A stretch of DNA of 63,998 nt, filler included, from Jimgerdemannia flammicorona (taxonomy: Eukaryota): the NCBI GenBank assembly GCA_003990765.1. It is 3 parts of 3 records of this genome, joined end to end, with 100 filler letters (N's around TTAATTAATTAA, not from the genome) between each part and the next. Parts side by side here need not be neighbours in the genome. Positions count along the whole stretch, not along the records: positions 1 to 21,453 come from RBNJ01001448.1; positions 21,554 to 43,000 come from RBNJ01001449.1; 1 more part is not named here. The stretch is one strand, 5' to 3'. Positions 7,791 to 58,383 of this stretch are shown here, one piece after another. Below the pieces are notes generated by a model. That model did no database searches. It saw only the letters and a list, made by a program, of their open reading frames with translations, and was not told the origin of the DNA. Positions within the stretch are counted from its first letter, which is position 1; the number at the start of each line of letters is the position of its first letter. The position numbers were made by a program, and so were the translations under genes.

Positions 7791-7816
7791 ACCTCAATAA
7801 CCTGACTACCAGAACA

Positions 7817-10800
7817 CTAGACTTTGTCAAGTTAAGACAAACTGCTAAGGCCCCAACCAAAGGAAGTCAAAAAGCAGCTGGATATAACCTGTATGTAGCT
7901 GAAGAAGCTATAGTTTCCAACCGAGAAGTCAAGCAAGTCTATACAGGAATTAGTATCCAAATCTCTGAAGGACATGTTGGAAGAATATGCTGTTGCAGCA
8001 GTCTAGTATTGAAAGGACTCTCAGTAGAAGGAGGAGTCATTGACAAAGATTATACAGGTGAAATTATTGTTCTTATCCAAAACCACAGTTGGACACCCTT
8101 CAAGATCTCTATTGGTTTCTGTATTGCTCAGATTCTATTTGAAAAAATTGAATCAACCCTGATAATTAAGGAAGTCCCTGAACTACTACCCACCATCTGA
8201 TGATCCAAAGGATTTGACTCATCAAACAAGGCCTCAGCCCAACCTACCATAAACAAAGAAGAACAATTCTACAAGAAAATCGAAGATGGATATATACCAA
8301 GTGGCCAATGCCCTTATGGCATTGGAATGTACTCTTCCCAAATGATTGATGATTGCTTCTCTTGTGTCAATGAACTGGCTCAAAGAAGAACCAACAGAAA
8401 GAAGGCTCCTACAACCAAAATCACCACTATTGGATCAGACAAACTGCATATACTTAAAGCTTTTGTCAACTGAGCACCTGTTAAGATTATGATAGACAGT
8501 GGTGTCTCAGACAACTTCATCAATAAAGAAATAGCCAACAGACTTAAGGTTTTCACCTCTCTAGTACAACAAACCCAAGCAGTTGCCACAGCTGATGGAA
8601 CCTCACATGTTATTAGCAAGGAAGTCCACAATCTACCCTTCCAAATTGGTGACTAGTGAGTACATGTTACCCTCCAGATCATATCACTCCCTGATAATGA
8701 AATCATCCTTGGGACTCCATAGTTAAAACAAGAGAACCCCATGATCGATTGGATAAACCATTCTCTGACCATCAAGAAAGGATGCCACAACTTCAAACTG
8801 CAAGGCAAAAAGGATCCACTTAATTCTAGTGACCCTGGACCAAAGATCATCCACATTAACAAGCTACAACTCAAGAAATTGGCCAAGAAATACCCTCTCT
8901 TCACCATCTCCATCCACCTATCCAAAGGAGAACCCAAAAACTCTGAAGAAGATTTTTCCAAAGTTAACAGCCATGTCAGACCACTACTCCAGAAATTCTG
9001 AGACATATTCCCGAAGAAGCTCCTGAAAGGCCTACCTCCCAAATGAGCAGTAGACCATACTATCAAGACTATTTCAGATACCAAACCAGCCTTCAAGTCA
9101 ATCTACCACATGTCTCTGAGAGAAATTGATGCACTCAAGAAAGAAATTGATGAACTCCTAGAATAAGGATTCATCAGATCCAGCATATCACCTTATAGTA
9201 CACCAGTCCTATTTGTTGTCAAGAAAGGAGAAGACCTGCGAATGTATATTGATTACTGTAACCTTAATGAACAGACTATCAAGAACTGTTACCCACTACT
9301 AAGGATCAATGAAATATTCAATAGACTTACCAACCCACAATTTATGAGCTCCTTTGACCTGCGAAATGATTACTAGCAAATTGCCATGAAAGAAGAAAAC
9401 ATCTACAAGACAGCCTTCCGAACTCACTATGGACACTTTGAGTTCCTGGTTATGTCTTTTGGCTTAACTAATACTCCTGCAACCTTCCAGACACTGATGA
9501 ATACTATCCTGCACCCATACTTGGACAAATTTGTTATTGTCTATATTGATGACATTCTAGTCTTCAGCAAAACTCTGGAGGAACATCTTGAATACCTTGA
9601 ACTAGTACTACTGAAACTCTGAGAAAACTGACTCTTTATAAAACTCAGCAAGTGTGAATTTCTCCTGAAGGAAATCCAATTCCTTGAACATATTATCACA
9701 CTGAATGAAATCAAAGTGGACCCCAGCAAAATCTCTGCAATCAAGAATTGGCCCAGACCCAAGAAGCTGAAAGATCTCCAGTCATTCTTGGGATTAGCAA
9801 ACTATTATAGGTGATTTGTTGCCAACTTTGCTAAAATCACCACCACTCTCACCCAAATGACCAAGTATAGTAAGAAAGAAAAACAGCCCTGGACCACGAA
9901 ACAAGAGAAAGACTTCAACAATCTTGTAAATTGGAGACCCAAACAAGATACAGCCTTTCAAGCATTGAAAGATGCCTTGATAACCACTCCAGTACTTCAG
10001 GCAGCCAATTCTACCCTACTATACAAAGTCACTACTGATGCCTCTGACCTAGCTCTTAGAGCAGTGCTCATGCAAGAAGGACACCCTGTGGTCTATTACT
10101 CCTACAAGTTCAATGATGTCAAAATTAACTATACAACCCATAAAAAGAAAATACTAGCCATTGTAGATACTCTGATCAAATAGCGATCATACCTAGAAGG
10201 AGCACACTTCACTGTATTGACTGACCACAAATCATTAGTCAATATTAAGACCCAGGCTACCCTTTCTCGAAAGCAAGCCAGATGGATGAAAGTCCTCACC
10301 AACTTTGACTATGAAATCCAGTACTGCCCTGACAAGGAAAATATTGTTACCAATACAATCTCCAGACCACCAATCAAAGAAGTTATCCAAACCCTCATCT
10401 TGATTACAAACTCTATCATGGAACAAATTATCGTAGCATGTGCTGATGATAAAGAAGCTCAAGCACTCTGAGAAATCCTGAACAGTGATGATACTGACAA
10501 GTATACACAGTACCATCAATACCAACTGAAGGACAATACTATCTACTACAAGGACAGACTGTATGTCCTAAACAACTGAGACCTCCAAAGGACTATCCTA
10601 TTCAAATGTCATGATACCCCTACAGCTGGACATTTAGAATTTGATAAATGTTACAAAGTTATCTCCCGAAACTTCTATTGGCCCTGCATGGCAGACCAGC
10701 TCAAGACCTACATTACTTCCTGTGATGCCTGCCAATGGAATAAGTCCTCAACACTAGCAAAACCTGACCTACTCCACCCTATTCCAGTACCATCTGCTAA

Positions 10801-11884
10801 TTGGGAACAAATCTCTATGGACTTCATTGTACAACTACCCCAAACCAAGAATGGGAAAGATGCAATTGTTGTCTTTATGGACTATCTCAGCAAACAAGCT
10901 CACTTTGTATCAACTACCACTACTGCAACAGCACCAGATATAGCTACACTCTTGTTTGACAACATTTTCTGCTATCATGGTCTTTCTAAGATCATTGTTA
11001 GTGACTGAGACCCAAAATTCACCAGCTATTTTTGGAAAGCCCTCCATGCACACCTTGGAACGAAACTTGCACTATCTACAGCTTTTCACCCTGAAACTAA
11101 TGGCCAAACTGAAAGAATGAACTGAACTCTGGAACAAATGCTAAGGAACTATGTTTCCTACAGACAAGATGATTGGCATGAACACCTCACTGTAGTTGAG
11201 TTTGCCTATAACAACAGCAAGCAAGCCTCTCTCAGAATGATACCATTCTTTGCCAATACTGGACAAAACCCAAACACCTCTTTGACACTCATCCGAACTA
11301 CTGAAGAACTCTCTACAGTCGAAGCCATTGAAGAATTCCTACTCTGAATATATAATCTGAGCCAGATTGTAATTGAGAATTTATCGTGAGCCCAAGAACA
11401 ACAGTTACAGTATATTAACCAACACTGCTGGGAAGAAACCTTTAACATTGGAGAAAAAGTTCTACTGGACATCTGAGGATACCAAGTTGACAACCTCAAG
11501 CACAGACCATCTACAAAGCTGAACAGCAAGTTCATTGGACCATTCAAAGTCATCGCACAAGTCTCTCCTACTTCCTATAAATTGGCACTACCAGACACCA
11601 TTAAGATTCACTCAGTCTTTAATGTCCAACATCTCAAGTGATATAATGAAAATAATGACAAACTATTTTCAAACCAGACCACCAAACCACCTGCACCTGT
11701 CATTATTAATGACCAAGAAGAATATGAAGTTGAACAAATTCTCAACAAATGTGTCCACAAAAACCACCCAGAGTACCTTGTCAAATAAAAAGGTTACCTG
11801 ATCTACAATGCAACCTGGAAACCCAAGAGCAATCTCCAGAATGCTACCGACTTAGTTCAGGAATATGATTCCTTGAACAACTAA
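7817..11884 (+). pseudogene. pol of element B: dUTPase, protease, RT, RNase H, integrase, chromodomain
   Basis: dUTPase AAGYNL/GGVIDKDYTGEI (7817-8225); protease IMIDSGVSDNFI (~8485); [13 protein letters not shown] and [37 protein letters not shown]; chromodomain EEYEVEQILNK...YLVK*KGY...ATWKP (11716-11884). Confidence 0.92.
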
Positions 11885-12313
11885 AACTATATACTCTACA
11901 CCTATCTGTACATACTATATATTATCCTCCCAAACACTATAATTACTACAAATAAAATCAAAAACTCAGCAAGTCAAGACATAAGAATACCGATCCTGTA
12001 GAAAAATAGCAAAACTAAAAGCCAGCCTATTCTCCCCATACCACTGATGGAAAACGAGGCATAGATATTTAAGAAGATTCCTTAGAAGAAATTCTCCAGT
12101 AGTGAATGACATCAGAATCACTTCCGGCACATAGCATTGAACACATGACCCTTTAATGTATGAATCTAATATGTTAGACAACTGTACTATGAGCATGCCA
12201 CTTTCTGAGAAAAATGGACTTCACTGGACTTTTGACCTCTCAAATGGTATAACAATACTAGAACAAAATTAGAAGGCCTCAATAAGGATATCGAAAGCTA
12301 AGAAGGGGAGAGT

Positions 12314-14375
12314 TGTAAGCACACAACCTCCAAGCCACCGAAATCACATGTCACTCTCTGAACAAGCCACTGAAATCACATGTGACCTCCAAACAAATCT
12401 GGAAATCACCTGCTTAATCATGAAGCTAAGTTAAACTGAAGTCACAGCGCACAAAGCTGAGTCAATACGAAGTCACAGAACACAAGATTTATATAAATAG
12501 AATCTTACCAATCAGGACCAAATGCATATATACCGAGCACTGAGATGTGTCAAAACAGAGAACCAAAACAAACAACAAACTACAACTTCCAAACACACAA
12601 ACATGACTATCAAGATCTACACCCATATCCGTGCTAATATTTGGAATGCTATTATCAACCAAGCCACTCCCCCTCTGCCCCTCATGAATATCCATAGCCA
12701 GGCACCCCTCTATTTTATGGAAGCCTGATGAAATGCCCTAAACATGCTCAACAAGGCCCACTGAATTGGACAAATCTCAAGCTACTACCAGATTGGCCAC
12801 CTCCTAGAAGATATGGTCAAACACCACCATAATACAGATATTATCCAGATGTCTCAACACCAGAAACTCATGTCTGCAAACACTGAGAACTCTTCTATGA
12901 GTATAGTGCTGTTATTCTCCACCTCCGAGTTACTATAGCTGAAATAGTTGCTACTCTGTCTTATAGCCAAATTGACAACATGATATAAGAACTCAATCAC
13001 AAGTATCTTGAGTATGTCAAAACCATAGACAGAATCTTTCTACACTCTAATGATCATATCCTGCAAATGCCTCAAGTTGGATATACTATGGAGGATGTCT
13101 ATGATATAATCTACTTTGACAAAGATGAAGCAGAAGACAATGATCCCTCTGATACCAATATGACCTCAAGCCAAGGATCCCTGCCAACTCTGATCACACC
13201 ACCAACCTTACCAATGAACTTATAACAATTCATAACAGTATACAAGACTTATTGGAACAATGATCACTAGCATGAATACCAACCTGCATTTACCCCCGAT
13301 TACTTCAACTATAACAAAGAGACCAGAGAACACAACCTGTACCTTCAGACAACCCTCAAGAATGAACCAACCACTCCACCACTCGAGTATGAATGACATG
13401 AACTACCATTGCCAGCTTACTACAACTCTGCAACTTATAGTACTGTAACCTACAGAAGGTATGCAGACAGTGAATCTGATGAAAGTGAAGATGATGCACC
13501 CCTCCTTTGCCCACCAATACCTTACCCCATATACAAGATGGATGATGCCATCTTGTGGAATGGAGATGAAGTTCCAATGTATTATTACCTCAGCAAACAA
13601 GGAGAAGTAATCTGCGAACCACTTTTCCTAGATGACTACTTTATCAGAGATGATGTCATTGATGGTGATGTTATTGAAGACTACCCAGACAGCGTCTAAA
13701 CCTATAAATAGCTTAGCAGTCATAGTATAGTTAGATTAGCCTTGTACAATGTGACTGTGAACTGACTCAGTAGTCAGACAATCTCTTGACATGTCAGATT
13801 ACTCTTGTACTACGTGACTGTATTCTGACTCAGCAAGGTACTTAGTGCTACATTCATATCTAGCATAGTCCAGATAGCTCCTCACTAGTATAAATACCCC
13901 CTCCCCCAGACCTCAGAATCTCAGACTCGAACATATAAGAACATTCCTGAATACTTTCCCACAATATCTCTTCATATAACTACTCCTAGTATAGTAATAT
14001 CATGAATAGCGAATAAACCTATTTAATAATCCACAAACCACTCTTAAGTAAATCTGCTCTTTATTAGGTCCCACTTCTAACCCCATTATGAAAATTCCTA
14101 ATTGGGTATTGTCTGCAGTGATATACCAATTCAACTAAGCTGGTCTTAGTTTCTTGAACTTCCTGAAATATGAAAAATTCTGAACATCCAGAACTAGTCC
14201 AAAAAAGGACTTTGGTTGAGATGTTAATCCAATCTTGAAATCAATAAGTGTAGAGGATGTACTCCATATGAAATTGATCTTGACCATTTTCTTATGGTCT
14301 TCCAGAACATCCAGAACTTCCAGAAAATCCTTTCAGAACTACATAACAGTTACCCTAAAAAGCAACCCTCTTATA
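12314..14375 (+). repeat. 3' LTR of element B
   Basis: Starts TGTAAGCAC after the PPT and ends CTCTTATA (mutated CA); colinear with the 5' LTR. Confidence 0.95.
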
Positions 14376-15960
14376 TCAAGGATTTTGCCCAAATTGCTGC
14401 CCCAATCTGAATCCTTCTCAAGAAAGGAATGCCATTCAATAGACAGAATCACAGGAAAAAGCCTTCAGAGAACTCAAGAACTGCATGACTACAGCATCAA
14501 TCCTTGTGCACTCCAATCTATAGAAGCCATTCATCTTGTATACAGATGTTTCCAAAGATGGCCTAGGAGCAGTTCTAGCCTAAGAAGGACCTGACCAACA
14601 GTACCATGTGATAGCTTATGCAAGTAGAACTACCAATTAGCAGCAGATGAACTATGGTAGCACCAAACTAGAATGTCTTGCAGTCATATGGGTGGTCACC
14701 CTGTTCAAGCATTATCTTATTGGTAAAAGATTCACCCTGATCACAGACCATACAGCCCTCAAATAGCTATTTAACTGTAAGGAATCTGCCAGAATCCTAG
14801 CCTGCTAGATCCTTATCTTTCAGAATTACAAAATCACAATTATTCACAAAGCAGAGAAAGCTCACAACAATATTGATATACTTTCCCATCAGCCCCAATG
14901 AACCAGAAAAAGGGTGTTCTGAGGAACTACACCCTAAAGAAAGCTTCTTAGACCATCAAAGAACAAGAAGATCTCATCCAACAAGAACATCAGAAAGCCC
15001 ACCAAGGACAGACAAGCACAGAAGACAAGATTTGAAAACAATATCAACATTGGCCCTACCTCAGAACCCAAGTCTGAGATATCATTCAGAAATGTGACAT
15101 CTGCCAGAAGTACTAAGGAAAGAAGAACTATCAAGCCCCTCTGCAACCAATTTCCCCACTCACTCACATCTTTCAAAGATGGGGAATAGATGTAATTGGA
15201 CCTCTACCAGTTATACCAAGAAGAAACAAATATATCCTTGTATTTGTAAAACATCTGACCAAGTGGCCTGAGGCTTTCCTAATGGAAATCACAGATGCCC
15301 TAACCATTGTAGGCCTTCTCCATAGACTCACACTCATATATGGATTCCCAGAAGAACTCATCTCTGACCGAGGCACAGAATTCATCAACAATATAATTAT
15401 AAGTTATGCTCGAATTCACAAGATACATCTCAACTGGACCACATCATACTATTCCCAGACCAATGGCATGATAGAAAGGATGAACCAGACCATCAAGAAA
15501 GGACTTGCCCAAGTCAATTCTACCAATTGGGACCTCTGCTTACCTGAGATCCTATGGGAAATTTAGAACACCCCTACTGCCTCAACCAAACAAAAGCCAT
15601 TTGAAATAATGTTTGCTAAGAAAACAAGAACTGCTGACCATGAAAACCTTGGAGATCTTCTCAAGAAGGCAGAACAGTTATATAATCAGACTCGAGATCA
15701 GATTATCAAAGCCCAAGAAAGACAAAAGAAGTACTATGACCAAAGACAGAAGGATCAGGAGATCAAGATTAGAGATTAAGTATTAGTTTGGAGAAGTATG
15801 ATTAAAACAAACTTCACTGCCAAATTGGAGCCCAAATGGGAAGGATCTTATCTTGTATACAATATCAGAGAAACCAGCATCTATTTAAGAAGCATGGATG
15901 GATGAACCCTGAGAACATCAGTATACATCAATTGCCTCAAGATATATCTCTTCTCATACT

Positions 15961-16473
15961 ATGAACTAGAGAATTGACAACTACCTCCAAACCCTTGTCC
16001 TCAGTTCCCTCCAAGCCCTACCAGTTCTCCTGCCTCAGTTCTGGGAATCCAATGGAATATATCTTCAGAAAATCTGAGTTCATCAAAAGAACCTCACTTT
16101 GGCTGAGAGGCTACTCTAGGTCCACCAGCTGCAGGCATACTATACAATTAGAGAGCAATTGCAGAATCTTCCTCTCCCAGACCTAGCCTATGTCTGAAAT
16201 ACCACTGGTCTGAACAGAAGGAATATTACTGCTGCAGACAGACTATATACAATATACAAATGAAATCCTTCTGCCTTAATCCAGGCCCAGTTCTCCTGGA
16301 ATGACCTCTAAAGGATAACACTGCCCACCTACTTCAGTATCATTCACTAAGTAGAGATCCTATTTCCTGAGGAAGAAGAAGAGCTCCTGGAATGAAGTGA
16401 CTGTAGCTTAGATAATGATGATAGAACAGGTATAGATGCAGAAACTGCTTATGCCTATTGAGATGATAACTGA
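15961..16473 (+). pseudogene. Extra ORF (~170 codons) downstream of integrase in element A
   Basis: Single frame MN*RIDNYLQ...QLQAYYTIREQL...NITAADRLYTIYK...DDN*; internal stops are all compatible with C->T/G->A changes; aligns by eye with the B-LTR and C extra ORFs. Confidence 0.65.
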
Positions 16474-16512
16474 AGAATAGTCTGGGACAGACTACCCTTT
16501 AGTAGGGGCTGA

Positions 16513-17230
16513 TGTAACAGACCAAAACATACCATCTGAATTATAACTTAGCCAGACGATGTGAACAATTAGTATACTTACTCAGCATGATGTAACTTCC
16601 AGTATATTATAGTTATCCATGTCTGTCACACTTATAATTAGCCAAGACACCAGATTAGGATTATTTATCTGTATTCTGAAGACACACTTATGTTCTGTGG
16701 ACACACTCATGTCCTATGGACACACTCATGTTCTGTAGATACACTCATGTCCTGTGGATATACCTATACTCAGAGGACACACTCAAGCATTACCAGAAGT
16801 AGTAAATCTATAGTTAGCTATATAGCAATCAGATAGCAACTAACTTGTATAAATTACCCCAGAGATAAGAGTGAATAAACCTCAGTCTGAAATACAAATA
16901 CCAAAGAAGTCTCTAAAGATTGAGCATTGGTCCCCTTTCCACTCTGGTCTACTTTCTGATATAAAGATTGATTGGTACATTTACCAGACTAAGCCTGAAG
17001 ATTTGCTGCCAAAGTTCAAAAAAGAACTTTGCCACCTTTTGAAGAGAAACCTGCTGCTTAAGGAATAAGCCATGCTATTGGTATACTTGCCAGATAAGCC
17101 TGAAGAACCCAAGTATTCACCACCATTCTTGCCACAAGTCAGTCTTTCTGATGCAACTTTGCAGTAGAGCCAGTCTATGATATGTATAACCCCATGCAAA
17201 TGAAGCCAGTCTTTGACATAACTTGCCAAG
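16513..17230 (+). repeat. Truncated 3' LTR of element A (contains a 19-bp tandem repeat at 16681-16765)
   Basis: Follows the PPT; homologous to solo LTR 55727-57010; similarity stops at ACTTGCCAAG where the LINE begins. Confidence 0.8.
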
Positions 17231-20200
17231 TATACTTTGGGGTCCCTGATGTGGCATAAGGGGGTCAGGTGGTAGCAGTTGGCGAGGATGAGCTGGTGGA
17301 TGTCCTTGAGGAGGAGTGGGATGAGGCTGCTAGTGTAGGAGCTGACACTACGATATTGGATACAGGGTGACTGTGGGGAACTTGTTGTGGATACACAAGA
17401 TGATAGATAACCTTGCAGCAGAGGCTTTGGAGGAGGTAGACCTGTGGGCAATGCCTGAGGAGCATTGGGCAAGGATTCTGTATGGTGATGGAATGGTGGA
17501 GGTACTGAAGGTGGAGATTCTGGCAATTTTGCTGGAGGAGGAGGGATATGAGGTTGATGAGGTGAGGAAGGCAGAGCTGGGGGTGGTCGCTGGTGAGTGG
17601 GCAGACTACTGTTGGGCAGAGCATCATGGTCTGCAGCTCTGGCAGGAGGCCTGTCTGGAGTATTGCGAGGATTTTGAGGAGCATGAAGATGGGGCAATAG
17701 TAGAACTTCTGGGAGAGTTGGAGGCATGGGAAGCTGGGGAGAGGGAACTGGCTGCTGAATATGACTTGGACTTGGTGCAAGAGGGGCAGGATGCTGACTT
17801 ATAGAGGATGGGACCCCGATATATATCATTATTCTTTATGAACAGTACAACCAACATTTTCTCCTTAAATGTGAATGGGCTAAGGGGCTCTGGGCAGCAT
17901 AGGAACATTTTTACTTGACTCAAGGGATTGGAGGCTGATCTCTTTTTATTACAGGATGTTAAGTGTGAGGATAAGGATGATTGGGTAGAGTGGACTAGGG
18001 AATGGGGGGGGGTTGCTGCTTGGTTTGAAAAGGTAGTAATTCTGGTAAGGAAGGGCAGAGGAGACTTGGGGGGAATCAGGAGCTGGGGCAATTGCTTGGT
18101 CTGAGGAGATTGGTATTGGCCAGAGTGGGAATTGGTGAAGGTGGGCTCTTGCTACTGCCCTGCGGCTAGGGGTGAGAGGACTGTATGGATTAGGGGATTG
18201 CTGGAGGAGGGTATTCTCTTGGAGGAAGGGGTCGATATTCTCAGTGGGGACTTTAATATGGTTTGGGATCAGTATCTGGACAGAACTGATGGAGGGAGGA
18301 GTGCTAGGGGTAGAAGTGGAGGTCTGGATACATGGGAGGAGGTGGAGACATTGAGCTCCTTGGGGGATATGGGCAGAACAAGGTGGGGTGACACCAGGGT
18401 CTACATACATTGGGTGAATGGCTTGGGTACAAGGATTGACTGGATTCTGATGGTGGAGTGCTGGGGTTCGGATGTTTGGAAGGCATTGGAAGTGGAGTGG
18501 TGTCTATGGTCTGATCACTGGGGACTGTTGGGGTAGGGGTAGTTTGGGGGGAGTGGAGATGGACCCAGACATTGGCACCTTAACTTCTCCCTGCTGGCTG
18601 AGAAGGGGCTGTGGGAACTGTGGGTGGAGGACATTCAGGCAAAAGTTTTTATCTGGAAGTGTGAGGGTTTGCCTGTGGCTGTCCACTGGATGAGGTTGAA
18701 AGAGGCTGTGAGGGTTTATTGGGGAGAGGCTGGTAGAAAGGCTGGGAGGCAGAGAAGGAGGTACACGAGGTGTGCTTCCAGCAGGCTGAGGAGACTACAA
18801 ATAGATTGGATGGATTTGCTCACTATTGTAGGGGTGGAGGATTGGAGGATAGAGAGGGCAAAATTGGAGATAGTGGAACTACAACAGGTGCTGAGGGAAG
18901 AGGAGGAGACCCATATGTGGGGCATGGCTGCTAGGCTGTGGTGGCAGGGGCTTAAAGAGGGTGAGTGGCCTACTAGGTACTTATCGAGACTTCTCAAAGC
19001 TAGGAGAGTGCGTCATCGGTGAGATGGGGTCCTGGATGCTGATGGAGACATAGTACACGGCATGCAACAAATCTTGGGGGTCTTGAAGGAGAGATGGCAG
19101 GACTTGTGGAGTGAGAGAAGGGGGTGCAGATGGGGCAGAGATTGCGAATACACTAGACAAGTGGGGGCCACCGCAGGTTGCTGGACTGAGGGACTTGACC
19201 TTGCCAGTGCAGGGAGAGGAGATCCAGAGTGTCCTGGCAGCAACTAAGCTTGGGATGGCACCAGGGGAGGATGGATTGCCATGGGACTTCTGGAAGAAGA
19301 TGGTAAATGTCCCCAGAGTTTTGGGTGAGATGGCTGCTCTTTGTGACCATGTTCTTCAGAGTGGTGAGTGGGTTGGAGAGCAGGATCTGGGGCTGGTGGC
19401 CTTACTGTACAAATCAAGGGAAGGAGGGAAGACTGGAAGAACTGGAGGCTGATCATGCTTCTGGATATAGACAGGAAGATGGTGACTAAGATGATTGTTG
19501 CAAGGCTGCAGAAAGTTGCCCAACAGGTGCTGGGGGAAGAGCAGAGGGGCTTTGTTGGGGGCAGGCTAATAAGAGATGGGACTGCATGGGTTCATGGTAT
19601 CATTGAAGGGGCCCGGGCCTGTGGACTGGATAGAAGATTGGTCTTTCTGGACCAGGAGAAGGCCTACAACCATGTATGGCAGGTGTGGCTGGGAAAGGTA
19701 TTGGACTGAATTGGTATTCCTCCAACATTTAGAGCCTCTATATTGAGTCTGCTGGAAAGTAGTCGGGCAGCTCTGATGTGTAATGGTCACTGTGGGAGGG
19801 CATTTCCCTTGGGAAGAGGAGTATCTCAGGGGGACCCTCTATCCCCGATTCTCTATGCCCTTTCACTGGAGCCATTGATGGATAGGATTTGCCAGAAGGT
19901 AGCAGGGCTCTCTATATATAGTATAGTGTGGAAGGTGGGGGCCTTTACTGATGATATGGTGGTTGGACTTGGGTCTGTGGTAGATGTAGAGGTACTTCAG
20001 GAGACTGTGGAATGGTATGAGGCTCACTCGGGGGTGAAACTCAACTGGCATAAGTGTGAGACGATGGTGCTAGGGAATGGGTTAGTGGGTGGGGACGTCA
20101 TTGGAACAATTGTCCCTACTGGTGAGGTGGTGTGGTATCTGGGCATCTTCCTCTCTGTATATGGTTCTGTCTTGCCACGAGTGTGGTGGGAGAGCAGGGT

Positions 20201-21453
20201 GAATAGTTGGGGGGAGGCCCTTCAAGGTTGGGGAGGCTGCCATATCTCTCTAGCAGAGCAGGTGTTAATCCTGAATGTATATTGGTTCCCAAAGCTGTGG
20301 TATGTGACATATCACCTTGACTTCCCAGCATGGGTGGTGAAGAAGCTGACGAAGGTGGCTAGAGATTGGATTTGGGTGGGAAGGAGGTCCCAGGTCAGTT
20401 GGGATACTCTTGTGAGACTGGTAGTCAGGGGAGGTCTTGGCCTGGTGGATTTCCCTAAAAGGCTGCACTGCTTAAGAGCCTGGTGGTTGAAGAGAGCTGT
20501 GGAATTGCAGGGTGGAGGTTGGGTATCTCTACTGCAGAAGGTATGGAAGATGCGAACATCCCCTTGAGGGTCCTCCAGAGATCTGCTCTCTTTGGTGGGG
20601 CTGAATGGAATTCGGAGGCTGTGGTTCAAGGGCTTTTAGTGGAGAGTGGCTGATGAAGTGTACTGAATTGACCTGCGCTGGCAAGGTAACGAGGAGGAGG
20701 CAGTGTGGGGGTCTAATATGTGGCATTGGGATAGACTGCTCCTGGGGGGGTACTCTACTGACTGCATTCGATATTGGGGAGGGAGTAGAGTATCAGCAGG
20801 GGCTTGGCCAGGATCTTTGGCCGAGTGGCTGGCAGGCAGTTGGAATCAGAGAGGAGTGGGACTAGGCAGGCATCTGGTCTTGGAGTGCAGAGGTATGGAG
20901 GTGGCTTCCTCCCAAGTTCTAGGTGGTATGGTGGAGAATGTTGCAGTGGAATATCATGCTGAATTTCCACTTGGGGCATTTAGTAGAGGGTGGACAATTT
21001 GACTGTGAGGAGTGTTATGATGTTGGGCAAGCTGGGGGTCATGTACAGATGCCAGAACATTGGCTGGGAGAGTGTGAGGTTTTGGGGGAATTTTGGGCTG
21101 AAATAGGAGATAGACTGGGTGTGGGGTATCAGCTGGTAGGGGGGAGGGTCGTTGGGAGGACTTAAGATCTCGGCTTGTAGGTGGGGTGGGTGATAGTTGG
21201 CTTACTGTAGGGTGGGTGTTAGCAGTATGGGTGGGACTGGCAGGACATTGGCTTTTTGTATTTGAGGAGGGGCAGTGGTTAGGGCTATGAGAGAAGGTGT
21301 TAAGGTGGGAGGAGCTGGTGGGAGATCTGCTGACTGGATGGTGGGTGGGTTGGGGTCCTCAGGGGGGACAACATCGCAGTTTGGTAGTAAAGATCTGTGA
21401 GCAGAGTAGTGGGAGGGTGGGGATAGTGTTCGATAAAGTGGTCTTTTACAGGG
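17229..21453 (+). mobile_element. 5'-truncated L1/Tx1-type LINE, copy 1 (end of ORF1; ORF2 APE endonuclease-RT-CCHC), runs into the gap
   Basis: ORF2 ATG 17838 MNSTTNIFSLNVNGLRG; GDFN and SDH endonuclease motifs; RT QRGFVGGR, LDQEKAY, GVSQGDPLSP, FTDD; CEEC...EHWLGEC at ~21004-21075. Confidence 0.9.
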
Positions 21454-21553
21454 NNNNNNNNNNNNNNNNNNNNNNNNNNNNNNNNNNNNNNNNNNNNTTA
21501 ATTAATTAANNNNNNNNNNNNNNNNNNNNNNNNNNNNNNNNNNNNNNNNNNNN
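21454..21553. other. Artificial gap/linker
   Basis: N44-TTAATTAATTAA-N44, with stops in all frames. Confidence 0.95.
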
Positions 21554-22086
21554 AGGAGGATCAGTTGGTTTATAGCGATGAAGAGGAGGATCAGTTGGTT
21601 TATAGCAATGAAGAGTAAGATCTGTTCACACCGGTAAGTTCTTTATTTTCCTGATTTACTTCCTATTTATTTCCGATTTCATTTTGATTTCTGATTCCTA
21701 ATTATGTTTCTGTTTGTTTATTCTAAATATATCTTAGATGTGCAATATTTTTTTTTTGGTATCTTGTAGCTTAAAGGCGGATTAAAGACAGGTCTGTGTC
21801 GGGTTAAATACGGGTCAGGGTCGGGTCACATATATTTCTCAGGTTGGGTTAAAGATGGGTTACGTATAATTCCGGGTCGAGTTAAAGACAGGTAACGTAC
21901 ATTTCCAGGTCGGGTTAAAGATGGGTGACGTATAATTCCAGGTCGGGTTAAAGATAGGTGATGTATTATTCCGGGTCGGGTTAAAGACAGGTGACGTATA
22001 ATTCCGGGTTGAGTTAAAGATGGGTGACGTATAATTCCGGGTCGGGTTAAATATGTACACGGGTCGGCTCGGGTTGCGATGCACTA
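21554..22086 (+). mobile_element. Probable 3' end of a hAT-like DNA transposon with a subterminal 33-bp tandem array
   Basis: Acidic ORF tail EDQLVYSDEE x2 then TAA; ~6.5 copies of CCGGGTCGGGTTAAAGAYRGGTGACGTATAATT (21838-22052); terminus ...GGGTTGCGATGCACTA abuts Gypsy RNase H sequence. Confidence 0.5.
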
Positions 22087-24418
22087 CTCAGCTCTCACCT
22101 GGCTACTGACAACCGGACAACCCAAGGGAATCTATGCTAGATGGATAATGAAGTTATAAGCCTATGATGTAACCATCATGCACCGCCCTGGAAGAACAAA
22201 TTCCAATGCAGATGCTCTCTCACGGATACCTCAAACTACCTCCAACCAACAAATCAATCATGAATAAGGAGCTCTACTATAGAATCATCACATACCTGGG
22301 ACAGCGAAAGATGCCCCAACATCTGGAAGAATGGATACAAACGATTATCAACAGGATATGGAAACAATTCGAAACCAACGGAGAAACACTGAAGAAAGGA
22401 AAACTACTAGTCATACCAGAACACAAGAAGGAGCAAGCAATGAAATCAGTACATGAACTTGGTTATCTAGGAGGAACGAATACATATGACAAGGCAAGAA
22501 GAACAATATGGTGGCCAGGGATGGAGGAAGATATCAGACAATTCGTCAAGACCTGTGACAAATGCCAGAAACAGAAACAAGACCAACGAAATCAAGCCCC
22601 AGGATCAGCACACATAGAACCAGTACCATTCGCCCACATTGCAATGGATGTAATCGGCCCCCTACCCTTGACTTTGACTGGCAACTGATACATCATTGTC
22701 ATTGTAGACCTTTTTATAAAGTGGATAGAAGCGGGACCCCTTATGGAAGCCAATGCACAGTCAATCGCCAATTTCTTCCACAAGGAAATCATCTGCCGGT
22801 TCAAGACCCCAACACAAGTAACTACAGATAGAGGAACTGAATTTGTGAACCAGTTCTTCGAAGTTCTCTATAAGAAGTACAAGATCCAGCACATTCGGAC
22901 CACAGTCTATCACCCTCAAGGAAATGGACAAGTAGAAAGGACTAACAAGACCCTCAAGAATGTTATCGCCAAGATCTGTAATAGCTACGAGAACTGGGAT
23001 CACTATCTACCAATAGCATTATCCGCTCTCCGGGATATCCGATCACAAAGTACCCACTTTACCCCTCGAGAAATGCTGTTCGGAGAAGAATGTTCTCAAG
23101 GAACCCTATCATCCAATAGAGATGCTGTATGGAAACATGTGGACACGGAAATACGGAGACTACACCAAATCAGGAAGAAGGCTGAGGATTACATAACGAA
23201 GGTGCAGACACTACAACGGAGGAATGCGGAAAAGACCCACAAACCCTTGGAGATCATCAAGATAGAAGACAAAGTCCTGGTGTATCGGAATATGGTTGAA
23301 GCTTCATGGTCACGAAAACTGGAGCCCAAGTGGGAAGGACCTTACCTTGTGCAAGATATAAAAGGAACCACCTTTTGGCTACGAAAACCCTCAGGCACAA
23401 TAATCCCCACCACAATTCACCGAAACCGGCTCAAGAAATATCATGGCCAGTAACAAAAGTACCGCGATGGTACTCAAGATCACTAGTGCTGCCCAAAGAG
23501 CCATCGAAAGACAATGGCACACCACCGAGCCTCCGACCATAGAGCCATTCTATGAGGATATTCAGAGTATTGTACAGACTCATCTCTCTCGAATCTCGCA
23601 CTTTAGAGCCTATCAATATCGAGCAGAATTCCAAGAGTACTTCAAGCTTGGACAGGTGCTCAATCAGGATTCAGCAAAGACCAAGGAGGACTAGATTACC
23701 GAGTGTCAACTCTCTCACTCACAGATCACTATTGCCAAAAGGATCCACAAGTTATTCTGAGAAGATGAAGCAGCGATAGACCACCTGAGAGGAGTAACCC
23801 CTACCGACTTTGAGAAAGTGAGAAGACATCATTGGGAAACAGTTATGCAGCAAATTGCATAGTACAAGACCATACAGACTATTGAAGCCTGGGAGTTTGA
23901 ATAGATGCCTCAGGGACGAGACCATCCATTCAGGAGGAAGTTGTGATGGTACAGCCAGATTTGGAAGAAGGCAATAGGGAATAGACACTTGATCGCACCC
24001 ATTCCCAAAGTAGTATAGCATTATAGTTAGCAGTCCTCGATTTTGACATTGTCTAAATTCTTAGACATTATCTAAATTTTGGACATTATCCAAATCGAAT
24101 ACCCCGATTTAGTATAGCATTTAGACATTGTCCAAATGTTTCGACAAAGTCCAAATGACTCATTTATTACTTAGCCACCCTTTCATAGCTAGCAAACTTG
24201 TATAAATAACCCAGTATCTTTGAGTGAATAAAACCTCAGATCGAAATAGTTCAAAGCAAAGAGATAGCAAAGGAACTAGTAAGTCTGCGGGCAGATACAC
24301 TTCGAACTTACCCACCCTCCCCTGCAACTTCAAGAGACTCTGTGAGAGTCAGAACAGTCAAGTTTTCAAGATACAGAAATCCGACGTACTTTCAAGAGTA
24401 AGCGTCTGCTATGTTACA
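22087..24418 (+). mobile_element. Ty3/Gypsy element C, 3' part: RNase H end, integrase, extra ORF, PPT, 477-bp LTR (23942-24418)
   Basis: HRPGRTNSNADALSR; zinc-binding region WWPGM...CDKCQ; AMDVIGPLP, TDRGTEF, HPQGNGQVER, WEGPY; PPT CAGGAGGAAG; LTR TGTGAT...GTTACA. Confidence 0.9.
23443..23904 (+). pseudogene. Extra ORF (~153 codons) overlapping the integrase stop in element C
   Basis: MASNKSTAMV...FQEYFKLGQVL...QITIAKRIHKLF*EDEAAIDHLRGVT...WEFE*, with three internal transition-type stops. Confidence 0.7.
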
Positions 24419-24860
24419 TTATATAATCTTTAACCTTTTTTCTAATTTGGTATAATTTCTATATCTCTATATCAATATATTTCTATAAGGTATCTCTATG
24501 AGATAATAGAGTTTCTTAAGAACTTTTTTCTCCAAATAGTATTTCTCAAAAGGTAAAATAGGTACTTTGTGATTAAATATCTTAAAGAGTAAATAATACT
24601 ATTAGCAAATAGTAGTCTCAGTTTTTATAGTTATTATAGATTTTGGTAATAATATTCTTAAGAGTCTTATTAGTTCTTTTTACTTATCTATTTTTCTAAG
24701 AGTATAGACTATAGTCTGAAAATACTGGATCTTATACTTTTTATAGAGAACCTCAAAGAACTGATTTATAAATTCTATTTCTTTATCTATAATTAGTTGA
24801 ATTAGGATCTTAAATTAGCAGATAATTTTTTTATAGAAGAAATTAGCAATTGACTATATA
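24419..24860 (-). pseudogene. Heavily mutated integrase fragment of C-family element F
   Basis: Reverse complement matches C integrase 22750-23190 after G->A/C->T changes (e.g. AATTAGCAATTGACTATATA vs AATTGGCGATTGACTGTGCA). Confidence 0.7.
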
Positions 24861-27165: not shown

Positions 27166-29250
27166 TTAATCCTCTCCGGCAGAACCAGAGGAATCAGAAG
27201 GTGACGAAAATGCAAAACGAGAGTGATGGATTGAAGAAGAAATAGAAGGAAGATGCGAACGAGCAATCAGAGGGCGTTGGGAAAGAGAAGAAAGTCCATG
27301 GTGTGAAAGAGGAGAGCGCAGGATAGTATCAGGGCGTTGAGCGACCCAGCAAGCACGATCAAATGGTATGACGAGAATTGGGGGTGGGAAAGAAGAGGGG
27401 GTACAGAGAGGGTAAGGGGAGAGAGAGGGAAGGGAGGGGGGGTAAAGGGGAGAGAGTAGGGAAGAGTGAACAACAGACCATTCAATAGAAGCAAGCAGAT
27501 CGTGAATGATAGAAATAGGGTAGGCACAACGATGGACCATGAAGTTGCCAAGAACCCGAACAGCAGACACCCAATCGGAACGATGGGAGCAGCATAGTGC
27601 AAGATGACGAGCCTCACTACGAACACATTCAAGAAGAGTGCGACGAGGATGATTGGACAAGAAGTCAGGGAACTGTTGGGAATAGGGAAACCAGGAATAA
27701 ACAACAGTTCAGAAGGGAGAAAGAGAAATAGAAAGGTCCAAAAAGGGAATACTAGTCATACTGCACACCCAAGTAATAGAATGATGGGTAGGGTAGATAC
27801 CCAAGAACACACTAGGGATATCAATGCCAGCAACAGTGAAGACAATAAAGTCATCAATGTATCGGCGAAAGAAGATATCCCTAGCCTGGAACACAATAGA
27901 AAGAGGTGAAGTAATATCATGTAATGCACGCAATTCATGGGCCAGGCCAATGAGGTTGGCAAGGGTGGGGGCACAATTCATTCCCATGGCAATACCAGAA
28001 GTCTGGTGAAAGGAGCCAAGGGCTGACTCAAAATAATTAGAGCCGCAGATGAGGAGCGTAAGCTCAACAATGGAAGCCAGCGAAACCAGGGAATCCAAAG
28101 GAAAAACCAAGGAACCCAAGAAGTGAAGGCAATCATCGATCTCATCAAAACGAATAGTAGTATAGAAGGAAGAGAAGTCACTAGAGGCCAAATGGGAAAA
28201 ACGGTGAACAGGCACAATGGTGGAGCAGAGAAGGGTGAGCTCCTGAGTATCATGAAGAATAGTATACTCAGGCCCAAGACAGTGTTGTAAGAGAGCCATC
28301 CAGGAGAGAAAGAAGCGGGACAACCACTTCGAAATCTCGGTGGTAGGAGAACTATAAGCAGCCATAATAGGATGCCAAGCCAAAATAGGTTTGTGAACTT
28401 TAGGAAGAGTATAGAAAACCAGAAGAGAAATATCCGGGGAGGACAAGAAGTCCTGGAAGAAGTTAAAAATGGGGTTTGCAAATGGAGAATCTGAAAGCGA
28501 TCTAGCATGAGCCAGAGAAACCCGAAGAAGAGTGAGAACCTCATCCAATCCAAGAGTGCTAGGCTCGTAAGCCGTGGCTCGAAGGAGGGCAGAAAGGCCA
28601 TCAAGGTAGAGCAACTTAGGAATAAGTGCAAAACCCTGATTCTTATCAGTAACTGTGAGCAAGTGCATAGGCAATTGCTTGACCGATTTAAGCGCGGTAC
28701 ACACGGCATGGTCCGAAACCAAGCAAGAGCGAGCTCATCCAGGAATAGACAGCGAGCAAGCTATGTCGAGGAATACGCAGTGTGAAGAGACATTGGGAGG
28801 GGGGACCCAATCACTAGGAATAAAATAGCGAGAGGGCATCTCACCACGATCTTGAAAGAAAATGGCAAGATCAAGAGCATGACGAAAACGTGTTAGACAA
28901 GCCGGATCAGTGAAGGAGAATTGTGAGGGAGTCGCAGGAAAAACAAAGCAAGGACTCAAGGATAGGGCAAAGACTTGAAGGGGAGAAAGGGGACAGTCAG
29001 CTGAAGAAAAAGGAGGAGACAAAAGTGTTCCAAGAGAAGAATAAACCCGAAAGTTTGGGACAAGCAACTGGGAAAGGCAAAGGGGGGACAACATGAGGAA
29101 CCACTCAGGGCACACCAGAAGCGACGATGGAATCCGAGAAGGGATGGGGACACCGGGGGAGAACCACACTGGGGGGAAGTTTAAGAGTGGGAGGCCTTCC
29201 CCTTCTCTCTGACTTTTTTTGAAGGTGGCGAACTCAACGAATAAGAGCAC
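27166..29250 (-). pseudogene. Penelope-like reverse transcriptase ORF2 (~690 codons, two in-frame TGA)
   Basis: ORFs 28735-29250, 27709-28722 and 27166-27660 share one frame; motifs TDKNQG, LPKVHK, HPIMA, DFSSFYTTI, QTSGIAMG-NCAP-LAN, RYIDD, IPFLD, SNHP. Confidence 0.9.
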
Positions 29251-43000: not shown

Positions 43001-43100
43001 NNNNNNNNNNNNNNNNNNNNNNNNNNNNNNNNNNNNNNNNNNNNTTAATTAATTAANNNNNNNNNNNNNNNNNNNNNNNNNNNNNNNNNNNNNNNNNNNN
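43001..43100. other. Artificial gap/linker
   Basis: N44-TTAATTAATTAA-N44. Confidence 0.95.
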
Positions 43101-57950: not shown

Positions 57951-58383
57951 ATATTATCTTTCTCTAGTACTAATTTAGATTATATAAGCTTTTTATAATA
58001 TATTTGATGTTGTTTTTAGTGAAACCAGACTAGTAATATAATAATATATAAGAGTTCTGATGAATATACTAGGTTGGATAAATCTGGGGCCTTTGACTGA
58101 CAATATGTCAGATGAGAGTATAACTTAGAAATAGAGTCCTTTGATGGTAAAGATAGACAGGAAGGATAGGGTGAGAGTTGACTGTCTGGCAGAAGTAGAG
58201 GAGGGCAAGGGCTGATGAGTTTTACTAAAAAGATAAAGACAGAGAGTTGGTCAGATGGTGCTCAGAGTGACAAGATTAGAGTGAGAGAGCTGATAATTAC
58301 TGGGAGAGCAAGAGGGTCATTGGCTAGAAGGACAGATATAGAGGCTGATAGAGCTGTGACTGAGAGCAGAAGTGAAGGGTACA

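Follow-up and report, generated by a model that had tools for sequence, protein, structure and literature searches.

Decayed copies of a previously unannotated third ORF in three Ty3/Gypsy lineages of Jimgerdemannia flammicorona, a possible dimeric regulator of its own LTR

Three Ty3/Gypsy retrotransposons (A, B and C) in a 63,998-nucleotide stretch of Jimgerdemannia flammicorona DNA, referred to as the window, each carry a decayed copy of one small accessory gene, here termed ORF3. We propose that RIP has inactivated what was a genuine, hitherto unannotated gene, whose product may be a dimeric DNA-binding regulator of the element's own LTR, a reading to which, taken as a whole, we assign a probability of roughly 0.45.

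Carrier elements and decay of the ORF3 copies

The window harbours a nest of retrotransposons mutated by RIP. The carriers belong to distinct lineages, with integrase identities of 33% between A and C and 24% for both A-B and B-C. According to their Pfam domains, the Ty3/Gypsy order PR-RT-RNaseH-IN is kept in A, in B and in L001, a metagenome element with a near-intact gag-PR-dUTPase-RT-RNaseH-IN region and an intact ORF3; the differing pol layouts of the hosts were found in the domain order that a preliminary description of this DNA had given. Element B displays further Ty3/Gypsy hallmarks, namely flanking LTRs, a polypurine tract, a PBS-like TGGTAGCAG and a 5-bp target duplication (TTAAG / TCAAG). 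Element C is present without its 5' part, and element A extends past the window.

In element A, the integrase end (14988–15981, plus strand; pol stop at 15979–15981) adjoins and overlaps ORF3 (15961–16473, plus strand), which comprises 170 codons with 9 internal stops and whose ATG overlaps the final pol codons in the +1 frame. The arrangement in element C is similar: the integrase end (22173–23453, plus strand) lies directly 5' of an ORF3 of 153 codons with 3 internal stops (23443–23904, plus strand), the ATG being located 11 nt ahead of the pol stop, again in the +1 frame. The B-type ORF (4017–5114, plus strand; 365 codons, 5 internal stops) is situated in U3 of the 5' LTR; its N-terminal ~130 aa represent the shared domain and are followed by a long extension with an acidic end. 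Further B-type copies occur in the 3' LTR (12603–13696, plus strand; frame shift near 12872–12878), in a separate insertion (35734–36753, minus strand; 69% identical to the 5' LTR copy in amino acids, with a 25-codon deletion near the end) and as a heavily RIP-mutated partial copy of the C-terminal part only (57336–57952, minus strand). The peptides reported earlier for A, B and C were present in the frames given, where they had been shown with "repaired" residues; the raw copies carry stops. Every copy of the family in the window does so, and all of them are dead.

The A, B and C ORFs are interrupted by stop codons only (9 + 5 + 3 = 17), and 16 of the 17 fall on Q, R or W positions of intact database relatives. 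The two LTRs of B differ by 212 transitions and 12 transversions, 140 of the 212 being CpA<->TpA changes, and the stops are thus of the transition type previously claimed. The decay of the ORFs is RIP (CpA to TpA), a point missed in the preliminary description; CpG deamination as its cause is ruled out by the CpA<->TpA bias between the B LTRs.

Relatedness, database relatives and selection

BLASTP, with X at stops, aligned the B and C proteins at an E value of 5e-4 (25% identity over 102 aa) and found no significant match for A-B or A-C. Profile-profile alignment by hhalign, which had been suggested as a check, yielded values of 2.2e-4 for A-C, 0.013 for A-B, 0.0079 for C-B and 4e-5 for A against three distant members, with probabilities that were low (3–70%) because the alignments are shallow. 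A profile built without A, from B, C and the distant members, gave the intact A-type proteins 26.8–32.3 bits (at Z=1, E 2e-10 to 4e-12), compared to 16.2 bits for the decayed A copy of the window; for each A-type sequence, including the window copy, 0 of 1000 shuffles matched these scores. An A-only profile recognized the other types weakly (3–8 bits, equalled by at most 35 of 1000 shuffles), and with the first profile run on 2232 six-frame segments of the window, the top match outside the training copies was the A region (8.9 bits, E 0.16). The shared alignment is collinear from the start codon across ~125–130 residues, at 11–24% identity between lineages. The ~75-aa alignment originally described is therefore real but too short.

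When a B+C profile was run exhaustively against 1.84 billion representatives with HMMER, 8 proteins were returned at E<=1e-3, with best E values reaching 1e-54 and 7e-140; they include intact B-type and C-type proteins and the three distant members. Of 4144 candidates from a word-indexed search, 16 proteins reached E<=1, including intact A-type (171 and 172 aa) and C-type (153 aa) proteins equal in length to the window ORFs. The A-type relatives P0015 (171 aa) and P0016 (172 aa) start and end as A ORF3 does, the C-type is represented by P0009 (153 aa) and by positions 5001-5462 of L001, and of two intact B-type fragments P0002 shares the start and P0001 the end of the window B ORF. Being gene calls, the database proteins are open by construction. 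All 16 word-indexed matches stem from ENA or JGI records that bear no family name, and no trace of the family was found in Pfam, NCBI or UniRef; a family profile would therefore allow fungal repeat libraries to annotate what they now overlook. The three window ORFs matched no Pfam family at E<=10. Across 21 members, Pfam gave scattered weak matches, the best being HTH_Tnp_Mu_2 in 2 of the 21 (E 0.031), and a search of PDB sequences gave no match (best E 0.062, an unrelated protein).

ORF3 of window C and of L001 share 66% amino-acid identity and differ by no indel in 153 codons. For this single DNA pair, in which one sequence has decayed by RIP, pN was 0.20 and pS 0.80 (saturated; 91.5 synonymous sites), compared to a pN of 0.068 and a pS of 0.51 in the adjoining integrase; neutral evolution, against which the claim was to be checked, does not agree with a pN so far below pS. 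Based on the scores of the A-free profile, taken together with the intact relatives of each type, we concluded that the A, B and C ORFs form one family, as had been put forward for these three Gypsy lineages. It is very probable that this is a real gene family under selection.

Position of the gene relative to polypurine tracts and LTRs

In A and C, ORF3 lies between integrase and polypurine tract and ends 24–27 nt 5' of the tract; the gene is therefore internal. The polypurine-like sequence and 3' LTR of A (16501–17114, plus strand) comprise AGTAGGGG at 16501–16508 and an LTR starting with TGATGTAACAG at 16510, with a U3 array of a 19-nt unit (x4.1, 16681–16758), TATAAAT at 16848–16854 and AATAAA at 16874–16879. 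A second A-like LTR copy occurs at 55727–56275; its match begins at 16513, and no integrase is found upstream of it. The corresponding region of C (23929–24417, plus strand) consists of the tract TTCAGGAGGAAG at 23929–23940 and the LTR TGTGATGG...TGTTACA at 23942–24417, with an 18-nt unit (x3.1, 24040–24095), TATAAAT at 24201–24207 and AATAAA at 24227–24232. The junction of ATTCAGGAGGAAG with TTGTGA 3' of ORF3 is common to window C and L001. An inverted, older C-like integrase fragment begins at 24420.

Only B carries the ORF inside the LTR. A direct repeat (3728–5790 and 12314–14375, both on the plus strand), 89.2% identical over 2059 nt, constitutes the 2.06-kb LTR of B. The 5' LTR contains a U3 repeat (31 nt x2, 3837–3899), the ORF, TATAAAT (5304–5310) and AATAAA (5427–5432) and is followed by the PBS-like sequence at 5794; the polypurine tract AAGAAGGGGAGAG (12300–12312) lies just 5' of the 3' LTR. 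In both LTRs, starting at 3728 and 12314, the ORF is located between LTR start and TATAAAT, in contrast to A and C. Since the tract of B is 5' of the gene, the gene belongs to U3 and is duplicated into both LTRs during reverse transcription. This contrast between B on the one side and A and C on the other had been missed in the preliminary description. At the RNA level, all three lineages would share the order gag-pol-ORF3-U3 core-R. In each of A, B, C and L001, U3 holds tandem arrays 5' of the TATA box, and the repeat units display no more dyad symmetry than expected by chance. In the 5' LTR of B, the TATA, poly(A) and PBS signals were assigned by eye against consensus sequences.

Predicted protein and proposed function

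An AlphaFold2 model based on 21 sequences is all-helical, as anticipated, with seven helices, a pLDDT of 88.4 and a pTM of 0.80; the core modelled alone reached a pLDDT of 84.9. Foldseek returned nothing at E<=1e-3 for the full or the core model. When the core was compared with 48,161 chains by VIA-align, where Z values under 8 may reflect merely a common arrangement, the best rows included SopB-DNA (Z 5.1, rmsd 3.1, 65 aligned), P1 ParB-DNA (Z 4.4, 65 aligned) and KorB (Z 4.2, 66–67 aligned), with Spo0J at Z 3.5; other rows were sigma region 4, DeoR, XRE, Fis, CENP-B and Mu transposase. By their titles, read by eye, about 29 of the best 50 rows are helix-turn-helix DNA binders, all at Z <=5.2. 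The core, consisting of three helices and two short ones, superposes over 64–68 of 76 residues on ParB/SopB/KorB-type and other helix-turn-helix domains (PDB 3mkw, 1zx4, 1r71, 8qa8), and the predicted dimer and the nearby tandem repeats are also reminiscent of ParB, SopB and KorB. However, Z values of 3.4–5.1, identities of 8–17% and the lack of a ParB N-terminal domain or Pfam match make this a likeness of fold only. Membership in the ParB/KorB/SopB family was rejected, as neither the three ORFs nor the 21 members matched ParB-type models in Pfam. The core thus most resembles, weakly, helix-turn-helix DNA-binding domains, and that the protein binds DNA appears slightly better than an even proposition.

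Homodimer prediction gave a score of 0.47 compared to 0.01 for the best of 3 controls. In benchmarks on solved structures, 21 of 30 same-chain pairs and 0 of 23 single chains from microbes attained the mark, as did 17 of 29 pairs and 0 of 30 single chains from eukaryotes, but only 1 of the 7 eukaryotic cases without an older solved relative. At least 72% of contacts agreed between runs, with a partner pLDDT of at least 64. The predicted interface is symmetric and involves residues 40–76 and 84–94, including the conserved motif. A homodimer is therefore supported in silico, by a prediction on a chain with a pLDDT of ~65.

Net charges of the last 30 residues are -10 and -13 in the A-type, -9 in the B-type, -7 in P0005 and -4 in P0007, in line with the acidic tails noted before for A and B, and these tails are rich in aromatic or aliphatic residues. 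The feature is not universal: the C-type ends in EAWEFE (charge -2), and the tail of P0008 is basic, with His, Cys and Arg. The env-like ORF3 proteins of Athila and errantiviruses possess a signal peptide and one or more transmembrane segments. No transmembrane stretch was found in 8 members (highest 19-residue Kyte-Doolittle mean 1.03), nor any signal-like segment, and the model is soluble and helical; an env-like ORF3 is thereby ruled out, as had been supposed.

We suggest that the N-terminal ~130 residues would form an all-helical unit in which a long helix with the motif Y[FY]x[IL]GxxL pairs two copies, followed by the three-helix, helix-turn-helix-like core and, in most members, an acidic, aromatic C-terminal tail. 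The dimer could act as a sequence-specific regulator of the element's own LTR, most likely a transactivator, with the short tandem repeats of U3 as candidate binding sites. The helix-turn-helix-like core, the in-silico homodimer and the acidic and aromatic tails agree with transactivation, but activation of its own LTR by ORF3 is a tentative proposal with rather less than even odds. Expression may rely on the 3' end of the genomic transcript, through either a subgenomic RNA or re-initiation downstream of pol; the B gene might additionally have its own promoter within U3. A fuller version, in which a self-encoded dimeric helix-turn-helix transactivator, the counterpart in simple retrotransposons of retroviral Tas or Tax, reads its own U3 repeats and coevolves fast with these sites, while the B gene was relocated into the LTR by a shift of the polypurine tract and the promoter-like 31-nt repeat ahead of it moved along, is rather unlikely in all its parts. 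An anti-silencing factor, the other function suggested at the outset, has no specific support.

Other functions are conceivable for such a dimer. In place of regulating transcription, it could coat the LTR repeats of reverse-transcribed DNA in the manner of ParB/SopB/KorB or Mu end-binding proteins, aiding nuclear retention, integrase loading or target choice, with the acidic tail contacting integrase or histones. The best full-length core matches are indeed ParB-family domains that bind repeat arrays, the weak HTH_Tnp_Mu_2 lead and the Mu transposase rows point in the same direction, the gene adjoins and overlaps integrase in A, C and L001, and U3 tandem arrays are present. Yet the Z values are too low to separate ParB-type from other helix-turn-helix folds, the ParB N-terminal domain and any Pfam match are missing, and activation domains are where acidic, aromatic tails are more typically seen; among longer proteins no ORF3-integrase fusion was found, which is weak evidence. 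We consider this cofactor role unlikely, and still less likely a repressor that limits copy number or an antagonist of host genome defence acting by protein contact, for which the helical dimer would be a scaffold. Fast divergence between lineages and between window C and L001, and a pN of 0.20 compared to 0.07 in integrase, might be the pattern of a conflict gene; helix-turn-helix dimers are equally often repressors and activators, KorB repressing its own operons, and the host plainly runs RIP against these elements. The acidic tails, however, fit activation better, and Pfam and PDB sequence searches revealed no likeness to known silencing suppressor or repressor families.

Exchange of the module between lineages, as initially suggested, is not supported as a recent event and seems very unlikely. 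The structural context of the gene does differ, A and C having it internally and B in U3, and the pS of ORF3 exceeds that of integrase, which could mean a different history, but this excess derives from 91.5 synonymous sites, with one of the copies decayed by RIP and the estimate saturated. ORF3 identity (11–24%) is no higher than integrase identity (24–33%), and the closest pair varies with the method, being B-C by BLASTP and A-C by hhalign. As ORF3 has diverged about as deeply as integrase, the data fit old common descent with no sign of transfer; a tree test is powerless with three rapidly diverging lineages. That the ORFs arose by chance in decayed DNA, or are remnants of LTR sequence that never coded, is hardly credible. 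Stops in every window copy, the absence of annotation and the 8.9 bits of the A region would fit such an origin; it is contradicted by intact relatives of all three types from both searches that keep start, stop and length, in-frame and indel-free alignments with pN well below pS, the A-free profile, the confident fold prediction and the database E values.

Extra genes have been described in other LTR retrotransposons. Boty-like elements of Botrytis carry brtn, titled as antisense in a paper cited by PMC8365987; like ORF3 it is an extra gene in a fungal Gypsy element, whereas the ORFs here are on the sense strand. Some fungal chromoviruses are drawn with an "add. ORF" of unknown function (Novikova et al. 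2010, PMC2864245); as in our elements, the dUTPase position varies and the extra ORF is unexplained, and by its description, as distinct from sequence, it may or may not be the ORF3 family. The additional ORFs common to diverse LTR retrotransposons of bdelloid rotifers (Juno/Vesta ORF3, PMC5408684) are, as described there, likewise third ORFs of unknown function after pol, not clearly env, in more than one retroelement lineage. This likeness is one of description; the hosts are of another kingdom, and the family reported here is small, soluble, helix-turn-helix-like and once inside an LTR.

Retroviruses possess accessory genes in the 3' or U3 region, such as foamy virus Tas/Bel1, HTLV Tax, MMTV sag and HIV nef. 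Tas binds DNA, possesses an acidic activation region and activates its own LTR, and sag lies within U3. ORF3 is likewise a gene 3' of pol at the 3' end of the genomic RNA, with the B gene in U3 as sag is; Tas-type activation of its own LTR is, by analogy, the working model that we propose. Unlike the retroviruses, the carriers are fungal Ty3/Gypsy elements without env, and none of the four proteins was among the matches listed in the PDB sequence, Foldseek and VIA-align searches. LTR retrotransposons are usually held to depend wholly on host transcription factors, self-encoded regulators being a mark of complex retroviruses. If our proposal is true, this line would be blurred by three Gypsy lineages of fungi that share a conserved accessory protein able to bind DNA, and relocation of the polypurine tract would represent a simple route for a gene into the LTR. 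Under the fuller version, each B LTR, even a solo one, would amount to a regulator gene complete in itself and able to act in trans on all copies. The family would also offer a handle on how elements burst in fungal genomes despite RIP.

An accessory ORF shared by three Gypsy lineages

Three Ty3/Gypsy elements in the window, A, B and C, carry decayed copies of an accessory gene, ORF3, at 15961-16473 (ORF-A), 4017-5114 (the B-type ORF) and 23443-23904 (ORF-C). The three peptides quoted in the preliminary description were found at these places and in the frames assigned to them. Further B-type copies were detected by tblastn at 12603-13696 (plus strand, in the 3' LTR of B, with one frame shift), 35734-36753 (minus strand) and, as a partial copy, 57336-57952 (minus strand). 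The decay of the window elements is RIP, a CpA-to-TpA repeat mutation process. The two LTRs of B differ by 212 transitions versus 12 transversions, and 140 of the 212 transitions are exchanges between CpA and TpA. Internal stops in the window ORF copies lie at Q, R or W positions of database relatives in 16 of 17 cases, and the stop repairs proposed beforehand, such as the G in YYAIG, match residues of these relatives. GC content drops to 0.16 in blocks at 38-39 kb, which is compatible with RIP. Judged by this signature, the host is probably an ascomycete capable of RIP.

In BLASTP with X at the stops, B and C matched at an E-value of 5e-4 (25% identity over 102 aa) whereas A had no significant match to B or C, so that on window evidence alone the three-way kinship would be only half proven. 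A first small profile scored 8.5-8.9 bits against A; despite this, A was not left unproven, since A-type relatives were later found.

A word-indexed search with B yielded one protein, P0001 (247 aa, intact, 57% identity), which ends where the B ORF ends. Searched exhaustively by HMMER with a B+C profile, 1.84 billion representatives yielded eight proteins at E<=1e-3, including P0001, P0002 (an intact B-type N-terminus starting as in B), two C-type proteins and the distant members P0005, P0007 and P0008 (E 1e-4 to 8e-4); P0006 (E 6.7e-4), which is repetitive and doubtful, was excluded from all alignments. When the alignment also included A, a second word-indexed search yielded 4144 candidates, of which 16 proteins had E<=1. 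All 16 originate from ENA or JGI records, lack Pfam domains and, if named at all, are called 'hypothetical protein'. The C-type protein P0009 (153 aa) equals ORF-C in length, and the A-type proteins P0015 (171 aa) and P0016 (172 aa) match the whole of ORF-A, start and stop included; the 65-aa tail fragment P0020 was excluded from the A-type alignment. The database proteins are open by selection. Fused forms were absent at E<=1 among 8000 scored longer candidates, which is weak evidence by the tool's own statement, and viral contigs scanned with the A-type and C-type alignments gave no match. A metagenome scan returned two loci from 334 pattern matches, of which L002 was rejected as a family member at family-profile scores of <=0.8 bits.

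An HMMER profile built from B and C together with the distant members, with A excluded, was applied to the A-type proteins. Scores were 26.8, 32.3 and 32.2 bits for the intact A-type proteins (E-values of 2e-10 to 4e-12 at Z=1) and 16.2 bits for the window copy of A; none of 1000 shuffles reached the score in any of these cases, the best shuffle having 12.4 bits. The reverse test, an A-only profile against the others, was weaker (3-8 bits, matched or exceeded by as many as 35 of 1000 shuffles). Comparison of small family alignments by hhalign gave E-values of 2.2e-4 (A-C), 0.013 (A-B), 0.0079 (C-B) and 4e-5 (A against the three distant members), all in one register, with probabilities of merely 3-70% on these shallow alignments. 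The 21-sequence alignment is collinear over approximately 125-130 residues from the start codon, with L73 invariant and Y66 nearly invariant (P0009 numbering). On this sequence evidence we accept the A-, B- and C-type ORFs as one family, as the preliminary description had proposed for the three lineages.

The second metagenome locus, the JGI contig L001, carries a near-intact C-type gag(CCHC)-PR-dUTPase-RT-RNaseH-IN element with an intact ORF3 of 153 codons. Between this ORF3 and ORF-C there are no indels, and pN is 0.20 and pS 0.80 (saturated, 91.5 sites), compared to 0.068 and 0.51 for the adjoining integrase of L001 and C, values that come from a single DNA pair of which one copy is RIP-decayed. 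For this one pair, the ratios suggest that ORF3 is under protein-level constraint, which is weaker than that on integrase.

Host elements and position of the gene

According to the Pfam map, the three elements occupy the first 24.5 kb of the window on the plus strand. Element A runs past the left end of the window and contains protease (approximately 370-470), dUTPase (2053-2424) and RT (3122-3600). Element B (3728-14375) interrupts A at 3727/3728, and A resumes from 14376 with RNase H and integrase, its pol ending at 15981. The LTRs of B (3728-5790 and 12314-14375) are approximately 2.06 kb each and 89.2% identical over 2059 nt; B further has a PBS-like TGGTAGCAG at 5794, a polypurine tract AAGAAGGGGAGAG at 12300-12312, a 5-bp target duplication (TTAAG/TCAAG) and a pol with dUTPase (7846-8224), then protease (8458-8750), and a terminal chromodomain (11725-11870). 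Element C is represented by its 3' part, with integrase at 22173-23453. It appears to have inserted into its own relative, as its 3' LTR is directly followed by an older C-like integrase fragment in inverted orientation (24420-24853, minus strand) that is more AT-rich and shares 59-66% amino acid identity. Integrase identities of 33% (A-C) and 24% (A-B and B-C) indicate that A, B and C are distinct lineages, A and C being nearer each other. While the dUTPase lies ahead of protease in B, it lies behind protease in A and in L001 (pol residues 641-768); matching this difference, its position in fungal Gypsy elements is reported as variable (PMC2864245).

No host genes were seen in the window. Beyond 24.4 kb, 5 of 44 ORFs of at least 110 aa matched Pfam, all as LINE-type RT or endonuclease. 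LINE-like copies with endonuclease and RT are located at 17100-21400 (plus), 27712-28734 (minus), 44360-44725 (minus) and 58800-63000 (plus); their sense strand is G-rich (GC skew +0.35 to +0.53 at about 50% GC), in contrast to the A- and C-rich sense strands of the Gypsy elements. A 33-nt tandem array of 6.4 copies (or with a 99-nt period) occupies 21842-22051, between the gap at 21454-21553 and the truncated C. At this gap and at 43001-43100, two pairs of 44-N runs with a 12-base spacer look like assembly or masking artefacts, not biology.

In the +1 frame, ORF-C opens 11 nt ahead of the pol stop, and its end lies 24 nt short of the junction TTCAGGAGGAAG/TTGTGATGG; in L001 the junction ATTCAGGAGGAAG/TTGTGA, as in C, lies approximately 27 nt past the end of ORF3. 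The C LTR ends with TGTTACA (24417). ORF-A is likewise in the +1 frame; its start precedes the pol stop by about 20 nt, and 27 nt separate its end from AGTAGGGG/C/TGATGTAACAG. Another A-like LTR is located at 55727-56275; its match begins at 16513, and it has no integrase upstream. Since ORF3 of A and C ends shortly before the polypurine tract, it is internal and fills the space from integrase to that tract. The polypurine tract of B precedes the ORF by approximately 290 nt, which places the entire ORF within U3, upstream of TATAAAT (5304) and AATAAA (5427), and it occurs in both LTRs. Thus, the order in the genomic RNA is identical in A, B and C, and the plus-strand priming site alone differs.

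By eye, the LTRs of A, B and C have a core in common, GTATAAAT..CCC near the TATA box and GAATAAACCT near the poly(A) signal. The TATA box and poly(A) signal are at 5304-5310 and 5427-5432 in B, 16848-16854 and 16874-16879 in A, and 24201-24207 and 24227-24232 in C. The core words are near-identical despite integrases that are only 24-33% identical, and a further word, TAGTATAG/TATAGTTAG, is common to the three LTRs farther upstream. U3 carries tandem arrays ahead of the TATA box in A (19 nt, 4.1 copies), C (18 nt, 3.1 copies) and L001 (18 nt, at least 4.5 copies), and immediately upstream of the ORF in B (31 nt, 2 copies).

Predicted structure of the ORF3 protein

Pfam contained no family at E<=10 for ORF-A, ORF-C or the B-type ORF. 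Among 21 members, scattered weak matches occurred, the best recurring one being HTH_Tnp_Mu_2 (2 of 21, E 0.031). A sequence profile search of the PDB gave no relative (best E 0.062, unrelated). The preliminary description had read the protein as helical and lacking a transmembrane stretch. No such stretch was found, and the AlphaFold2 model from the 21-sequence alignment (pLDDT 88.4, pTM 0.80) agrees, with seven predicted helices at 2-23, 40-75, 81-88, 92-105, 109-114, 120-124 and 128-151.

Neither the whole model nor the core had a Foldseek match in the PDB at E<=1e-3; VIA-align of the whole model gave no clear match (best Z 4.5, a TetR regulator), and the ESM Atlas returned unnamed or unrelated clusters only (TM 0.26-0.39). 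The core alone (76 residues, pLDDT 84.9) was aligned by VIA to 48,161 chains and matched DNA-bound SopB (Z 5.1, rmsd 3.1, 65 aligned residues), DNA-bound P1 ParB (Z 4.4) and KorB (Z 4.2), besides sigma region 4, DeoR, XRE, HetR, Fis, Mu Mor and C, and CENP-B. Judged by our reading of the titles, approximately 29 of the best 50 matches are helix-turn-helix DNA binders. As an unrelated photosystem subunit tops the list (Z 5.2) and all Z-scores are below 8, a range that may reflect a common arrangement, we rejected membership in ParB and regard the core, from these weak fold matches, as helix-turn-helix-like. All types have many K, R and H residues in helix 92-105, the putative recognition helix.

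A homodimer of ORF3 is supported in silico. The prediction score was 0.47, compared to 0.01 for the best of three controls; the dimer mark was reached by 21 of 30 same-chain pairs and 0 of 23 single chains from microbes, and by 17 of 29 pairs and 0 of 30 single chains from eukaryotes, where just 1 of 7 pairs without an older solved relative reached it. Contact agreement between runs was at least 72%, with a partner pLDDT of at least 64. The two chains are predicted to pair through the long helix 40-76, which contains the conserved Y[FY]x[IL]GxxL motif, in an antiparallel and symmetric interface.

The last 30 residues have a net charge of -10 and -13 in A-type, -9 in B-type, -7 in P0005 and -4 in P0007 proteins, and these acidic tails are interspersed with W, F, Y and L. 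The C-type tail is merely EAWEFE, and that of P0008 is basic. The B-type ORF extends approximately 235 residues beyond the shared domain (4400-5114, 57% identity to P0001), with blocks such as HKYQPAFTPDYFNYN and YFIRDDVID that match no family.

Proposed function and place among accessory ORFs

Two helix-turn-helix units in a dimer, combined with an acidic, aromatic tail, are classic for transcription activators, and the helix-turn-helix-like core together with the tail suggests that the ORF3 dimer may be such an activator. The U3 tandem arrays would then be candidate binding sites. This is put forward as a hypothesis only, because short tandem arrays are frequent in LTRs and dyad symmetry in the repeats was within chance (182, 342 and 621 of 2000 shuffles were equally good for A, C and L001) and was therefore rejected as evidence; none was found in the B repeat. 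Expression of ORF3 would depend on a promoter within the element, on a subgenomic RNA or on re-initiation downstream of pol. In A, C and L001 the ATG overlaps the end of pol in the +1 frame, which is compatible with re-initiation. The 31-nt repeat of B contains TGAGTCA-like words and an ATAAA, which we take to resemble an AP-1/Gcn4 site and a TATA box, and for this reason it could be the ORF's own promoter.

Other explanations are less probable. A ParB- or Mu-like cofactor of integration that binds the cDNA is unlikely, though the foremost of them, and a repressor or counter-defence factor is somewhat less likely again. That the module was recently exchanged, an extension of the exchange considered in the preliminary description, we regard as improbable: ORF3 identity between lineages is 11-24%, a divergence as deep as that of integrase, and it thus gives no sign of a recent event. 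It is hardly conceivable that there is no gene at all, a reading contradicted by the relatives from the HMMER and word-indexed searches, by the pN/pS of ORF-C and L001, and by the scores of the A-excluded profile on A-type proteins.

With regard to the proposed activator, retroviral regulators such as Tas, Tax, sag and nef are encoded at the 3' end or in U3, and env-like ORF3 is among the known extra ORFs of LTR retrotransposons. Bdelloid ORF3 families are reported as common to different retroelement types (PMC5408684), brtn as an extra ORF in a Botrytis LTR retrotransposon (PMC8365987), an unexplained 'add. ORF' for some fungal chromoviruses (PMC2864245), and two ORFs only for crapaud of Podospora. 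Full-text searches of the literature found no published description of the ORF3 family. We rate ORF3 as a new family, which could include the 'add. ORF', and as a kind of accessory protein that is new for fungal Gypsy elements. Extra ORFs in LTR retrotransposons are already known, and B provides an instructive LTR-borne form of the ORF3 family.
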